Part shown: in pieces, positions 6,276-36,941 of the stretch | How the letters are laid out: every line of letters begins with the position of its first letter | How positions within the stretch are numbered: position 1 is the first letter of the stretch | Assembly: GCA_964558315.1 (NCBI GenBank) | Contig: CAZLCL010000004.1 | Location: 7,221 to 49,970 of the forward strand | Length of the DNA: 42,750 nt | Reading direction: 5' to 3' | Origin: an uncultured Candidatus Saccharibacteria bacterium | GTDB taxonomy: Bacteria > Patescibacteriota > UBA1384 > XYA2-FULL-43-10 | Made by a program: the position numbers and the translations under genes | The notes under the pieces: generated by a model | Database searches by the model: none | What the model was told of the DNA's origin: nothing | The model's input: the letters and a program-made list of their open reading frames with translations, nothing else

Positions 6276-6352
6276 CGGGGTGTAGCACAGTTGGCTAGTG
6301 CGCATGGCTGGGGGTCATGAGGTCGTCGGTTCGAGTCCGACCACCCCGACCA
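6276..6352 (+). tRNA. tRNA-Pro (anticodon GGG), 77 nt
   Basis: Acceptor CGGGGTG/CACCCCG; D stem GCAC/GTGC; anticodon stem CATGG/TCATG with loop CTGGGGG; T arm GTCGG-TTCGAGT-CCGAC; ACCA end. Confidence 0.95.
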
Positions 6353-31081: not shown

Positions 31082-32455
31082 CTATAATTTTTGAGTAATT
31101 AAGCTCGCAATTTCCTGAATCTTAACCCTTTGTTGCTTCAAAGTATCCCTGTCTCTAATTGTTACAGTATTATCATTGAGACTATCGAAATCAACTGTAA
31201 CGCAAAAAGGAGTCCCAATCTCATCTTGACGACGATAGCGTTTTCCGATATTGCCGTTATCATCAAATTCACAAACAAAAGACGTTTTGAGATCGTCAAA
31301 AATTTGTTTTGCCATATTAACAAGCTCGGGCTTATTCTTTAACAGCGGGAAAATTGCCGCCTTAACTGGGGCAATCTTTGGCGGGAATTTCATCACAACT
31401 CTTTTACCATCCCCAACAGTCTCTTCGCAATATGCACTATCTAAAGCAACTAAAATACTACGATCTAATCCAAAAGTCGGCTCCAAAACATGTGGTATAT
31501 ACTTCCGATTTGTTGCCTCATCAAAATACTCGAGCTTCTCTCCGCTTTTCTCAGAATGAACCTTCAAATCAAAATCACTACGATGAGCCAATCCGAATAA
31601 CTCCTTAAAGCCAAAAGGATATTGATATTCAATATCTACTGTTTTTTTGGAATAGTGGGAAAGTTTTTCTTTGGGATGTTCATATCTTCTCAAATTTTCT
31701 TTGACCGCTCCAATCTCAATGGCAAATTCCTCTTGTAAATCTAGCCACTCCGAAAAAATCTCTTGCCAATTACTGTCGGGAGAAATATAGTATTCTATCT
31801 CCATCTGCTCAAATTCTCGAAGTCTAAAAATAAAATTTCCGGCTACAATTTCGTTTCGGAAAGCTTTGCCGATTTGAGCCACTCCAAAAGGAATCTTTTG
31901 GCGTGTGGAGTCTAAAATATTTTTAAATTCAATAAAAATAGCACCGGCAGTTTCTGGCCGTAGATATGCCACTGCCTCATCCCCAACTCCGGTAGTATTC
32001 ATGTTAGTCTTAAACATCATGTTAAAATTTCTTACCTCACTCCAATTCCGTTTGCCACAATTTGGACAATTAACCTTGTCATCAAGCATTTTTTTCATTT
32101 GCTCTAATTTACCCTCTAAGTCCTGCCCAGTAGCATCTTCGACAATATTGTCAGCCCTGAACCTGCTTTTGCACTCCTTGCAATCCACCATAGCATCATT
32201 AAAACTGGTGGTATGGCCACTAGCCTCCCATAACCTTGGGTGAAGAATAATAGGGCCGTCAATCCCAACAATATCCGATCGGTTGTTTACAAATTTTTTC
32301 CACCACAAATCTTTAATATTCTTTTTTAACTCCGAGCCGTAAGGACCGTAGTTATATGAGTTAGCAAAACCGCCATATATCTCAGATGCACTATTTACGA
32401 AGCCTCTCCTCTTGCAGAGAGATACAATTTTTTCCATCCTGTCTTGATCAGCCAT
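31082..32455 (-). CDS. glyQS: Glycine--tRNA ligase (dimeric class II, GlyQS type)
   Basis: 457 aa. It starts with an N-terminal RRGF..SSEIYGG-like segment (RRGFVNSASEIYGGFANSYNYGPYG). Class II motifs follow (FRNEI, GLDR). An anticodon-binding C-domain closes the protein. Confidence 0.9.
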   Translation of the reverse strand: MADQDRMEKIVSLCKRRGFVNSASEIYGGFANSYNYGPYGSELKKNIKDLWWKKFVNNRSDIVGIDGPIILHPRLWEASGHTTSFNDAMVDCKECKSRFRADNIVEDATGQDLEGKLEQMKKMLDDKVNCPNCGKRNWSEVRNFNMMFKTNMNTTGVGDEAVAYLRPETAGAIFIEFKNILDSTRQKIPFGVAQIGKAFRNEIVAGNFIFRLREFEQMEIEYYISPDSNWQEIFSEWLDLQEEFAIEIGAVKENLRRYEHPKEKLSHYSKKTVDIEYQYPFGFKELFGLAHRSDFDLKVHSEKSGEKLEYFDEATNRKYIPHVLEPTFGLDRSILVALDSAYCEETVGDGKRVVMKFPPKIAPVKAAIFPLLKNKPELVNMAKQIFDDLKTSFVCEFDDNGNIGKRYRRQDEIGTPFCVTVDFDSLNDNTVTIRDRDTLKQQRVKIQEIASLITQKL

Positions 32456-32523
32456 ATTTTTCCTCTTTAATATTCTAGCCAGATTTTATCCTATTTTAAG
32501 CCAAACGTAAACAATGATGCTCA

Positions 32524-32544
32524 ACCAGCTAACGCAGGTGGTTT
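32524..32544 (-). repeat. 21-nt hairpin module, copy 2 (degenerate)
   Basis: Plus strand ACCAGCTAACGCAGGTGGTTT matches 19 of 21 nt with 32741-32761. Confidence 0.7.
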
Positions 32545-32623
32545 CTGGGTTCAACGGGCTAATGCCCTCTTTTGTCATCCTGAGTGAAACGAAGGATCTG
32601 TTTACCATTAACGCGGTGATGGG

Positions 32624-32656
32624 ATTCTTAACCCGCTGATTCAGCGGGTTAAGAAT
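32624..32656 (-). other. Perfect 14-bp stem-loop in the glyQS leader region
   Basis: ATTCTTAACCCGCT (32624-32637) pairs with AGCGGGTTAAGAAT (32643-32656) across a 5-nt loop. No U-run follows on either strand. Confidence 0.8.
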
Positions 32657-32740
32657 GACAGAGTATGGTAGAGAATGTATTTTTTCTTAAGTTATTGTAT
32701 ATGCATCTGATTGCATAATGCTAATGCTTTAAACGCATAC

Positions 32741-32761
32741 ACCTGCTTACGCAGGTGGTTT
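32741..32761 (-). repeat. 21-nt hairpin module, copy 1 (7-bp stem; GUAA tetraloop when read on the minus strand)
   Basis: Plus strand ACCTGCTTACGCAGGTGGTTT. The stem is CACCTGC/GCAGGTG at 32740-32757. The loop is TTAC on plus, which is GTAA (a GNRA loop) on minus. Confidence 0.7.
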
Positions 32762-32780
32762 ACCTTGTAGGTAAGGCGTT

Positions 32781-32808
32781 GGTGCCCCGATATTGTCATC
32801 GGGGCACC
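32781..32808 (-). other. Perfect 11-bp GC-rich stem-loop immediately 3' of the 53-codon ORF
   Basis: GGTGCCCCGAT (32781-32791) pairs with ATCGGGGCACC (32798-32808) across a 6-nt loop. There is no U-run, so it is not a canonical terminator. Confidence 0.8.
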
Positions 32809-32824
32809 ATGGCTCTATCAGGCA

Positions 32825-32986
32825 TCAGCGCAGACGTTTTTCGACTTTTGCCATGACATGATTGTAGTTGGCAAGAGCCCTTTGGCAGTAATTCTGCCGG
32901 CGTAATTGAGCAAGAGCTTGTTGCTCAGCCCTTTGCGCTCTTGCCGTTTTGCCACTATTGCGAAACGCTACCTGATGTTGAGTCAC
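32825..32986 (-). CDS. Candidate small basic protein (53 aa, GTG start), unknown function
   Basis: Hand translation gives VTQHQVAFRNSGKTARAQRAEQQALAQLRRQNYCQRALANYNHVMAKVEKRLR. A strong SD, AAGGGAGGAAG, sits 7 nt before the GTG. Codon choice is GC-rich and unlike neighbouring genes. It is below the ORF-track cutoff and could be a chance ORF in a structured RNA. Confidence 0.35.
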   Translation of the reverse strand: MTQHQVAFRNSGKTARAQRAEQQALAQLRRQNYCQRALANYNHVMAKVEKRLR

Positions 32987-33040
32987 GATTCTTCCTCCCT
33001 TGTATTCGTTCCGGGATGACGAAAAATCACCAACCCAGAC

Positions 33041-33076
33041 AAAAACAAAAAAGCCGCCGGTAGACTTGGCGGTTTT
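33041..33076 (-). terminator. Intrinsic terminator after the island-1 micro-ORF
   Basis: Minus strand reads AAAACCGCC-AAGTCTAC-CGGCGGC followed by TTTTTTGTTTTTG. The GC stem lies at 33053-33058 / 33068-33073. Confidence 0.7.
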
Positions 33077-33098
33077 AATGTTTAACTATATTTAAAGA

Positions 33099-33197
33099 TT
33101 ACACTAAAACCACCCGTTTACCCACGACCACAACACAAACTAGAGCACCTGATTGCTTTGATAAAAAAATCGCTCTATTTTGCATTATTTGTTTCAT
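33099..33197 (-). CDS. Candidate leaderless Val-rich micro-ORF (32 aa), possible leader peptide
   Basis: MKQIMQNRAIFLSKQSGALVCVVVVGKRVVLV. The ATG begins 8 nt after the -10 hexamer, with no SD. The last codons overlap a sequence complementary to the terminator 5' arm. Confidence 0.3.
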   Translation of the reverse strand: MKQIMQNRAIFLSKQSGALVCVVVVGKRVVLV

Positions 33198-33204
33198 TTT
33201 TATC

Positions 33205-33233
33205 ATATTACCAGCCTGATTTTTCCAGGTCAA
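33205..33233 (-). promoter_or_regulatory. Sigma70-like promoter of island 1 (TTGACC-17-TAATAT)
   Basis: On the minus strand, TTGACC lies at 33233-33228 and TAATAT at 33210-33205 with a 17-nt spacer. Confidence 0.55.
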
Positions 33234-33324
33234 CTATGATCCGAAAATATTCTTCTAATGATTGTGCGGCTATAACCAATTTTACAAAGAAAAGGCATAA
33301 TTATCTAACACCACTCATTTTTAA

Positions 33325-33364
33325 AACACAATAATTTGATACGATCGTTGCAATCTATTGTGTT
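33325..33364 (-). repeat. 40-nt hairpin repeat, copy A (overlaps the stop codon of the PaaX-like gene)
   Basis: AACACAATAATTTGATACGATCGTTGCAATCTATTGTGTT has a 9-bp stem AACACAATA/TATTGTGTT. The 22-nt loop contains the palindrome ACGATCGT. 34 of 40 nt are identical to copy B. On the minus strand it is followed by TTTTAAAAAT. Confidence 0.8.
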
Positions 33365-33879
33365 TTGAAAATTTTTTTGAGCTCATTCTCAATATCTGTT
33401 TTTTCTACAACAAAATAAGCTACAAATTTTTCAACCTCGTGCATTTTAATCACTAAAATTTCATCATCAGCTTTATTATAAGGGCAAGCCCACAAACTCT
33501 TCTGAACTTGGCGGAAACCAATCTGTTTAATTGATCGTCTAAATCGGTCTCTTCTTTTTCTGAACTCCTCGGGAATATCGAAGGACAATATCCGCCACCT
33601 ACCGTCCGAAGATTTATCTTTAGAATTCTCTAAGCATTTAATATTTCCCTTATCCGTTAGAACAATCGAGTTATTATTGATTTTAATATAACCACTTTTT
33701 TCTAAATATTTAATTCTTTCGCTAAACCTGGTTATTCTGAAACCTTTTAGCTCAATCTGTTCACATAATTTATTTGGAGTTAAAAAAGCGTGACCAACTA
33801 CAAAAGGAAAATTTACAATAACTTCCAGTATTGTTAAACTGATATCTCTAAGAATAATTTTTGTCTTTGGATTTTTCAT
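33355..33879 (-). CDS. PaaX-family-like regulator (N-terminal winged HTH + C-terminal PaaX_C / Cas2-like fold domain)
   Basis: DGRWRILSFDIPEEFRKRRDRFRRSIKQIGFRQVQKSLWACPY matches the PaaX C-terminal pattern W.G.W.lv.fdiPe..r..Rd.lrr.L...GF..l..s.W..P. The N-terminal part has an HTH-like RFSERIKYLEKSGYI. Confidence 0.7.
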   Translation of the reverse strand: MKNPKTKIILRDISLTILEVIVNFPFVVGHAFLTPNKLCEQIELKGFRITRFSERIKYLEKSGYIKINNNSIVLTDKGNIKCLENSKDKSSDGRWRILSFDIPEEFRKRRDRFRRSIKQIGFRQVQKSLWACPYNKADDEILVIKMHEVEKFVAYFVVEKTDIENELKKIFKTQ

Positions 33880-33911
33880 TTACCTCAAAAAGTCAAAATT
33901 CTTAATAATCA

Positions 33912-33951
33912 AACCCAATGTTTTGATACGATCGTTGCATATTATTGTGTT
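33912..33951 (-). repeat. 40-nt hairpin repeat, copy B (between recO stop and the PaaX-like gene start)
   Basis: AACCCAATGTTTTGATACGATCGTTGCATATTATTGTGTT has the same 18-nt loop core TTTGATACGATCGTTGCA as copy A. The stem has one mismatch. Confidence 0.8.
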
Positions 33952-33958
33952 AGGTTTG

Positions 33959-36214: not shown

Positions 36215-36269
36215 ATATTATCCTTAGTTAATCTAACCCCAGCCTACCACTACATTAAAGCGAAAAATA

Positions 36270-36310
36270 TGGAAAAAGAAAAGTCCGCCCGCCGGGTCGG
36301 CGGGCGGACT
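36270..36310 (-). terminator. Strong intrinsic terminator closing island 2
   Basis: A perfect 13-bp GC-rich stem AGTCCGCCCGCCG/CGGCGGGCGGACT (36282-36294 / 36298-36310) with a 3-nt loop, followed on the minus strand by TTTTCTTTTT. Confidence 0.85.
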
Positions 36311-36336
36311 GGATCTCATAATGCTACTGCGACCCC

Positions 36337-36549
36337 TTAGCACCTCCGGTGCTTCCATGCACCGGTGTTAATTTCTTGCTCCATACACTTGGGACAACCC
36401 GGTTGACTACATTGAATGCATCTTTTGAGGGTGTTCCGCGCAACCGGCGGGTCGGCTTTGGGCCTCGGTCCATGGAGCCCAGCCCCGCAATGAGGGCATT
36501 TCTTCTCCGCGTTCACGCCGTTAACTCTTGATGCAGACCTCTTTGCCAC
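36337..36549 (-). CDS. Candidate small CPxCG-type zinc-finger protein (70 aa, GTG start)
   Basis: VAKRSASRVNGVNAEKKCPHCGAGLHGPRPKADPPVARNTLKRCIQCSQPGCPKCMEQEINTGAWKHRRC, with SD AAAGGGG 6 nt before the GTG at 36549. The longer ATG-start version in the ORF track (to 36642) would run through a terminator hairpin. The sequence is very GC-rich (40/60 at 36421-36480) and could instead be structured RNA. Confidence 0.4.
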   Translation of the reverse strand: MAKRSASRVNGVNAEKKCPHCGAGLHGPRPKADPPVARNTLKRCIQCSQPGCPKCMEQEINTGAWKHRRC

Positions 36550-36600
36550 AGATATCCCCTTTCGTGCTGTATTGAAAAGCGTATGCCCTTCAAGCAGAAC

Positions 36601-36623
36601 AAAAAAACCGCCTTTTGGCGGCT
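36601..36623 (-). terminator. Intrinsic terminator after the island-2 micro-ORF
   Basis: Minus strand reads AGCCGCC-AAAA-GGCGG followed by TTTTTTT. Confidence 0.8.
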
Positions 36624-36649
36624 GATCTTTAGATGTCTGCAACGAAGAA

Positions 36650-36709
36650 TCAACCGCTGTGCGGACAGATTAGAATAACACCAATAATAAGTGATTCTGA
36701 TCGCTTCAT
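36650..36709 (-). CDS. Candidate leaderless micro-ORF (19 aa), possible leader peptide
   Basis: MKRSESLIIGVILICPHSG. The A of the ATG is the 7th nt after the TATAAT hexamer. The stop-codon region GCGGTTGA is complementary to the terminator 5' arm. Confidence 0.25.
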   Translation of the reverse strand: MKRSESLIIGVILICPHSG

Positions 36710-36715
36710 GTTAAC

Positions 36716-36744
36716 ATTATATCATATGTAGCAATAAATGTCCA
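36716..36744 (-). promoter_or_regulatory. Sigma70-like promoter of island 2 (TGGACA-17-TATAAT)
   Basis: On the minus strand, TGGACA lies at 36744-36739 and TATAAT at 36721-36716 with a 17-nt spacer. Confidence 0.55.
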
Positions 36745-36941
36745 TATTTACCAGCAGTTTTCTCCAGATTTGATCTTTCTTCTCAAACACCGGTTATTTA
36801 CCCCGCCTAAAAACCGTTTTTCTTGCACTGGCACAACAAAATCTCCCCATTCCCAACAATCAACGCCTCAGTCAGAATTTTAAATTCTATTGCTACTTTT
36901 TCCATAATTCTTTATTCGTTATTCTTAATTTTATATTTGGC

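Follow-up and report, generated by a model that had tools for sequence, protein, structure and literature searches.

A composite intergenic region upstream of glyQS in an uncultured Saccharibacteria bacterium: a conserved structured leader with a candidate attenuator, a 53-residue orphan protein gene and a palindromic-repeat insertion

The genome of an uncultured Candidatus Saccharibacteria bacterium (assembly GCA_964558315.1) contains an 899-nt gap directly upstream of glyQS, the gene for glycyl-tRNA synthetase (GlyRS). The gap lies at 32456-33354 of the window, as we call the whole stretch of 42,750 nt of contig CAZLCL010000004.1 analysed here, between glyQS (31082-32455, minus strand) and a gene for a PaaX_M/Cas2-like winged-helix protein (33355-33879, minus strand). 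The initial annotation of this DNA, made from the letters, had leaned towards one coherent 0.9-kb island of structured RNA. It is instead a composite, which includes a protein gene, ORF53, and a species-specific insertion; read in the direction of glyQS its parts are a promoter, a structured leader with a terminator, ORF53, the inserted block of palindromic repeats and a glyQS promoter-like site (Table 1). Here we describe these parts and consider whether the leader may gate ORF53 by attenuation.

Table 1. Features of the gap upstream of glyQS, in window coordinates
Feature	Coordinates	Strand	Details
Distal sigma70-type promoter	33205-33233	-	-35 TTGACC 33233-33228, 17-nt spacer ending TG, -10 TAATAT 33210-33205 (promoter scan)
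Candidate leader open reading frame, 32 codons (MKQIMQNRAIFLSKQSGALVCVVVVGKRVVLV)	33099-33197	-	ATG 7 nt after the -10 element
Leader Stem 1, 15-bp hairpin	33131-33187	-	33187-33172 pairs with 33146-33131; variable 25-nt loop
Leader Stem 2, long hairpin of the predicted terminator	33047-33128	-	33128-33101 pairs with 33081-33053, followed directly by U6 at 33052-33047
5' untranslated region of ORF53	32987-33046	-	Stem 3 (33038-33027 pairs with 33022-33011), A-rich stretch, GGGAGG ribosome-binding site at 32999-32994
ORF53, orphan gene for a basic protein of 53 aa	32825-32986	-	homologues P0001, P0002, P0123 and an uncalled frame in L173
12-bp GC-rich hairpin after ORF53	32780-32809	-	conserved; z = -5.5
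Palindromic-repeat insertion, 258 nt, present only in this species	32515-32772		empty site in relatives
REPIN-like element, 86 nt, GTCAT...ATGAC	32574-32659	+	hairpin A (GTCATCCTGAGTGAAACGAAGGATC), spacer, 16-bp perfect palindrome at 32624-32656
Proximal glyQS promoter-like site, 5' untranslated region and ribosome-binding site	32456-32514	-	TTTACG-17-TAAAAT at 32511-32483 (promoter scan)

The general description of the gap largely stands. No open reading frame (ORF) of 60 aa or more had been seen in it, and the longest are indeed 58 and 53 aa. Its GC content, first given as about 50%, reaches that level at 32701-33000 (0.49) and not in the flanking 300-nt bins (0.40 and 0.36), so that the GC-rich portion is the central 300-450 nt; neighbouring genes are nearer 0.33-0.40 than the 30% originally counted, and most of the window lies at about 0.30-0.42. 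The region is hairpin-dense, as claimed: the minimum free energy (MFE) of the whole gap has a z score against shuffled sequences of -8.5 on the minus strand and -9.3 on the plus strand. The perfect stems, reported as 14 and 11 bp, are in fact 16 bp (32624-32639 with 32641-32656) and 12 bp (32780-32791 with 32798-32809). The good sigma70-type promoter was recovered (TTGACC-17-TAATAT with a TG extension, elements conserved in four other lineages), as were the intrinsic terminator (CCGCC/GGCGG and T6, 33072-33047) and the reading of everything on the minus strand, as for glyQS. Rfam 15 at the gathering threshold finds five tRNAs in the whole window and nothing inside the gap; in E-value mode the gap gives chance-level fragments of miRNAs, leaders and terminators (E >=0.06, bit scores far under the thresholds), in agreement with the first impression that no known RNA family, T-box included, is present. 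The suggestion that such composition marks either structured RNA or acquired DNA holds in both halves, each for part of the gap: a leader RNA and a recent insertion.

Relatives were reached through the small gene rather than through glyQS. A full HMMER search with ORF53 returned a homologue of the same length at 75% identity and a profile search a third at 64%; exact-protein look-ups then led to the syntenic loci L169, L170, L173 and L177 and the partial loci L171 and L172, where GlyRS is 87-88% identical to that of the window. The more distant loci L174, L175, L176 and L006 have GlyRS at 81%. A GlyRS-based scan of genome contigs gave L006 as the closest syntenic locus, the others being at about 70% or lower and non-syntenic, and a scan of metagenome contigs gave, among the matches listed, none closer than 69%, the source contigs not being among them. 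BLASTN of the gap against phage records gave no match, and nhmmer with a leader profile over 1.5 Mb of sequence found orthologues only.

The GC-rich core of the gap is mostly ORF53. Pairwise dN/dS is 0.12-0.37 (six pairs) at a dS of 0.45-2.1, comparable with the dS of 0.9-2.4 for GlyRS, and the differences between the window and L169 fall 4, 9 and 19 at the three codon positions. Four sequences start with GTG and L177 with ATG, the stop codon keeps its position to within one codon, and no stop interrupts the frame. RNA folds of this region vary among lineages (z from +0.4 to -3.0), which argues that constraint acts on the protein. Taken together the comparisons indicate that ORF53 is a real protein gene under purifying selection. 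It is confined to this clade and always lies upstream of glyQS. Homologues form only three clusters among 1.8-5.8 billion proteins, and there was no significant match in Pfam, NCBIfam, PHROGs or PDB; neither the ORF53 family nor the leader is represented in the libraries searched. AF2 models the protein as one long helix (pLDDT 86). A ribbon-helix-helix fold, considered on account of a G-x-S...ALxxY-like pattern, is supported neither by Pfam nor by this single helix. GC at third codon positions is 0.43-0.62, against 0.35-0.38 in glyQS, a composition atypical for the host.

Upstream of ORF53 the leader, about 150 nt from approximately 33198 to 33047 on the minus strand, consists of two long hairpins. 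In a five-sequence alignment 97.3% of the cells at paired positions form a pair on the minus strand, against 76.9% when the pairing is mirrored to the plus strand and 38-51% in slid controls; the strands differ because some invariant pairs are G-U and because some one-sided changes preserve pairing only as G-U. This indicates a structure that acts at the RNA level on the minus strand. In Stem 1 93% of cells are paired and two pairs change on both sides, and its 25-nt loop is almost unalignable across lineages yet without insertions or deletions. Stem 2 has 25 pairs with 98.4% of cells paired; one column pair (87/138) runs through C-G, U-G, U-A and G-C, and every one-sided change retains pairing via G-U. 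Together with the U6 that it abuts it has the features of an intrinsic terminator. Within it a shorter alternative, CCGCC (33072-33068) with GGCGG (33058-33054), can be read directly from the sequence, and was overlooked by the terminator scanner because its loop is 9 nt. The leader folds alike in four lineages (z from -4.6 to -6.2).

Conservation continues past the terminator. The terminator and 5' untranslated region (UTR) segments are 80-93% identical, whereas synonymous sites differ by 44-70%, and nowhere is the locus more conserved than in the 60 nt following the U-tract (84-93% between lineages). Stem 3 is paired in 100% of cells, and GGGAGG is placed 7 nt before the ORF53 start codon. 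A hairpin that pairs UCCC with GGGA could sequester this Shine-Dalgarno sequence, but conservation favours Stem 3, with which it competes. Neither inspection of the sequence nor the promoter scan revealed a recognisable promoter in the 60 nt between terminator and ORF53. Beyond the gene the 12-bp hairpin keeps its stem while the loop varies, its closing pair U-A becoming U-G in relatives, where a U-rich tract follows 5-7 nt later; it is likely to be a terminator or stabiliser. Judged from these alignments, conserved structured RNA is confined to the leader and 5' UTR (about 215 nt) and this one hairpin.

The hairpins of the leader share their nucleotides with a candidate ORF. Its ATG, 7 nt after the -10 element, would make the mRNA leaderless or nearly so. 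In all five sequences this offset is the same and the frame has exactly 32 codons and no stop, despite the diverged central 25 nt, whereas the other two frames contain 2-5 stops. The last third of the ORF (...VVVGK...) is the 5' strand of the Stem 2 hairpin.

The promoters suggest where this arrangement was built. The -35 and -10 elements of the distal promoter are kept in L169, L170, L173 and L177 with a diverged spacer, and they are homologous to the sole glyQS promoter (GTCAAGGTTTACG...ATATTAT) of L006, L176 and L175, in the common context GTCAAGGTTkACG ... ATAwTAT. In L174 the order is recO, 61 nt, glyQS. The cassette, which runs from this promoter through the leader ORF and terminator to the small gene, thus sits inside the former glyQS 5' region. 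Closer to glyQS, the 59 nt that carry the proximal promoter-like site are 95-97% identical to L169, L170, L171, L172 and L173.

The L006 contig, from the closest species-representative genome, reaches 219 nt upstream of glyQS and stops at the place of the cassette in the window clade; with the window leader its first 219 nt share the promoter context and a short ATCAAAGCAAT...TAGTTTGT sequence and nothing more.

How, then, might ORF53 be expressed? Lacking a recognisable promoter, it would be reached only by read-through of the leader terminator, and a gene under purifying selection that always lies directly behind a terminator implies that the read-through is functional. We propose that the position of a ribosome on the 32-codon leader ORF would decide whether a terminator forms. 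With no ribosome present the long hairpin would form and transcription would end; a ribosome covering the first 14 nt of the 5' strand would leave only an inner helix, with GGCGGC unpaired, and allow read-through; a ribosome at the leader stop codon would permit the short CCGCC/GGCGG hairpin and again cause termination. Constraint folding is consistent with these states. The free leader folds into the long hairpin beside U6 at -33 to -36 kcal/mol. Masking the first 14 nt of the Stem 2 5' strand leaves only the inner helix; GGCGGC then finds a weak partner in the window and L169 and none in L173 and L177. If 22-43 nt are masked, as by a ribosome at the stop codon, the short hairpin forms.

We put the probability of the reading as a whole, a composite in which attenuation gates ORF53, at about 0.6. 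The anatomy of the composite is by itself highly probable, while the attenuation mechanism is offered tentatively, as an idea that may well be wrong. The full proposition, that a leaderless 32-codon ORF would be a working attenuator in the ancestral glyQS 5' region, gating an orphan 53-aa coiled-coil protein, we consider doubtful. If it is true, the ORF53 protein could act on GlyRS or on translation.

The proposed arrangement resembles the leader-peptide attenuators of Proteobacteria (pheST/pheM, ilvBN/ivbL, trp, his and the pyrBI type, in which ribosome-polymerase coupling acts on the terminator) in several respects. A short ORF lies close by the predicted start of transcription and, towards its 3' end, shares sequence with one strand of hairpins that exclude each other; a GC stem with a U-tract forms a terminator ahead of the downstream gene and, as with pheST, the whole is placed upstream of an aminoacyl-tRNA synthetase gene. 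The Val-rich 32-residue peptide is reminiscent of ivbL. It differs in its leaderless start and in its alternatives of pairing, which are 1:4 plus 2:3 versus 3:4 where the classical scheme has 1:2, 2:3 and 3:4. The gene directly controlled would be an orphan 53-aa ORF rather than glyQS. We know of no leader-peptide attenuator described in Patescibacteria.

Several observations weigh against this interpretation. The leader ORF has no codon cluster that matches GlyRS, that is, no run for the downstream enzyme such as the known attenuators have, its 1-2 Gly codons standing beside 5-8 Val codons. Its conserved residues coincide with the stems, so that conservation of the peptide is inseparable from constraint on the RNA, and the ORF could be accidental, its Val-rich tail arising as a side effect of a helix strand rich in G and U. 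With just four or five closely related sequences to compare, most leader pairs are invariant, and the covariation comes from three pairs. The promoter-like site directly ahead of glyQS may also mean that this gene is transcribed separately and escapes control by the cassette altogether. The attenuation model itself is built entirely from sequence comparison and predicted folds.

Much the same evidence can be read without a switch. The leader may be a stand-alone small gene or dual-function small RNA, with a terminated transcript of about 150 nt that would encode the 32-aa peptide or function as RNA, and ORF53 served by constitutive leak. Structured, terminated transcripts of this size with a conserved short ORF are known from SgrS/SgrT, RNAIII/hld and SR1/SR1P, and here too the ORF is conserved in length and frame; covariation best supports the full long hairpin abutting U6, which would simply be a strong terminator, whereas the short hairpin is invariant and covariation cannot support it. 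Unlike those small RNAs, however, this one has a dependent gene downstream of its terminator. The conservation peak between terminator and ORF53 contains no recognisable promoter, and selection on ORF53 at its constant place implies functional read-through; we regard a leader that works alone as improbable. Less probable again is a riboswitch-like or protein-binding attenuator that responds to a ligand, a tRNA or a protein (possibly that of ORF53), with the 32-codon frame incidental. Leader RNAs often control aminoacyl-tRNA synthetase genes (T-box, thrS, pheST), basic helical proteins such as that predicted here may often bind RNA, and the hairpins are structured, strand-specific and conserved, with conserved internal loops. 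Against it, Rfam gives no match, T-box and glycine riboswitch included, and the Stem 1 loop, variable, of fixed length and with an open frame, fits coding better than an aptamer. The T-box (RF00230), the usual glyQS leader in Firmicutes, likewise lies upstream of glyQS with a terminator, and the leader contains a T-box-like string, GGGUGGU. A search of 32300-33500 with RF00230 gave no match at the gathering score or at E up to 10. The string is fully paired in the covariation-supported helix (GGGUGG in columns 89-93 with 131-135) rather than lying in a 7-nt bulge, and the Stem 1 loop of no lineage contains a GGC specifier codon; the T-box was therefore rejected.

Two further explanations concern the gap as a whole. 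A single large new structured non-coding RNA of 0.9 kb would account for the very negative z score of the entire region, the lack of an Rfam match and the high GC content in an AT-rich genome, but ORF53 evolves as a protein with RNA folds that differ between lineages, 258 nt of the hairpins are missing from all relatives and a terminator splits the region, which leaves such an RNA scarcely credible. The initial annotation had named inert junk or an assembly chimera as its alternative, and Logan contigs do break inside the region, at 32544 and 32708. These breaks lie close to a pair of 21-nt repeats (32524-32544 and 32741-32761), and two Logan contigs confirm both junctions. Moreover, two independent JGI assemblies span the entire region at 99.3% identity and conservation of the core in four other lineages far exceeds the neutral level. 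We give junk or chimera the least credence of all.

The insertion is species-specific. It is missing at exactly the same point in L169, L170, L171, L172, L173 and L177, with boundaries identical in four lineages, and in these relatives the glyQS promoter region comes straight after the spacer that follows the post-ORF53 hairpin. The empty site reads GCCTT|TTGTTT, without target duplication. L169 lies nearer to the window than to L173, which makes a single insertion more parsimonious than the same deletion twice over, and the insertion appears to be recent and restricted to the window lineage. The two 21-nt repeats noted above are direct, hairpin-forming, 90% identical and placed 9-11 nt inside each end. 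The window and a sister strain differ at six sites in the gap, all inside a 42-nt part of the insertion (32582-32623); on the minus strand each changes C to T, G or A, and two extend the palindrome to 20 bp. Such clustering suggests conversion by another repeat copy or local hypermutation.

In its layout the 86-nt element recalls repetitive extragenic palindromic sequences (REPs) and the doublets that they form (REPINs; PMC3116915): two inverted palindromic units with a spacer fold into a hairpin, and other genomes carry the core motif in arrays. The subterminal, directly oriented hairpins at both ends and the lack of a target-site duplication also recall miniature inverted-repeat transposable elements (MITEs) derived from IS200/IS605 (PMC3116915), a resemblance only. 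REPs are dispersed in many copies through one genome; here no second copy of the insertion was found in the 1.5 Mb examined, which includes the 42.7-kb window and about 13 kb of the sister strain but only part of the genome. For want of a second copy its mobility is unproven, a further point against our account of the gap. Unusually for REPs, which are normally lineage-specific, the GTCAT core motif spans phyla. The 27 nt of hairpin A are identical (27/27) in Planktothrix and Gloeothece plasmids, where they stand in arrays and inverted doublets, and nothing but this motif matched in a BLASTN search of the gap against plasmid records. The motif is found as well in Bacteroidota plasmids and at six unrelated loci with covarying stems, and the order GTCAT-hairpin-spacer-hairpin-ATGAC recurs in L053 and the cyanobacterial plasmids. 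We take the insertion to be, most probably, a non-autonomous element, either mobile or recombinational, that plays no part in the cassette.

Sites of the hairpin motif GTCAT-xyz-GAG..GA-z'y'x'-ATC occur in Patescibacteria, Chloroflexota, Cyanobacteria and Bacteroidota: in addition to 32574-32598 of the window these are L053 6393-6457, L007 10305-10344, L015 7559, L021 8564, L033 8409, L076 4872 and L086-L088 at about 1440-1580. Stems covary (ATCCT, ATTCC, ATTCT, ATTGC, ATCCC), and the copies often form inverted doublets or arrays, at times within annotated giant ORFs. A literature search on the motif returned primer sequences only and no name.

The surroundings of the cassette are variable in their own right. 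Between recO and glyQS the spacer is a hot spot of change in the clade (L174 3440-3500; L175 2877-3500; L176 2408-3500; L169 4823-5677): L174 has 61 nt there and L175 a GC-rich block of 624 nt with an opposite-strand ORF of 102 aa, and in L169, L170, L176 and L177 the spacer holds a GC-rich orphan gene of 284-285 aa, also on the opposite strand. This orphan gene stands in relatives in place of the PaaX_M/Cas2-like gene. A composite palindrome of 46-56 nt (ACACAATA-N-TGCAACGATCGTATCAAA-N-ATTGkGT) occurs twice in the same orientation beside the latter (33317-33372 and 33906-33957), one copy just upstream of it and the other overlapping its stop codon; the two may be an operator pair for the regulator or the boundary of a swapped-in gene cassette. 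A second GC-rich gap, at 36233-36750 (GC 0.55 at 36301-36600), separates the fpg and hexapeptide-transferase genes and contains a promoter-like site, two GC hairpin and T-run terminators and a Cys-rich ORF of 101 aa. It has no Rfam match, and the ORF has no Pfam match. Only about 200 nt are alignable to L169, where NUDIX and 133-aa genes sit; on comparison the 101-aa ORF and the 133-aa gene proved unrelated. The five tRNA genes of the window are four clustered on the minus strand and one on the plus strand (1668-2316 and 6276-6349).

Gene regulation in Patescibacteria is almost unstudied, as these bacteria are uncultured or grow in co-culture only. The cassette, conserved well above the neutral rate ahead of an essential aminoacyl-tRNA synthetase gene, gives studies of transcription-translation coupling in this group something specific to work on, and the attenuator reading, if true, would to our knowledge be the first leader-peptide attenuation system described in it. 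The cross-phylum GTCAT...ATGAC hairpin motif may merit a survey of its own. More generally, GC-rich, hairpin-dense gaps that seem free of ORFs in AT-rich reduced genomes can conceal microprotein genes below the usual cut-off together with young palindromic insertions.

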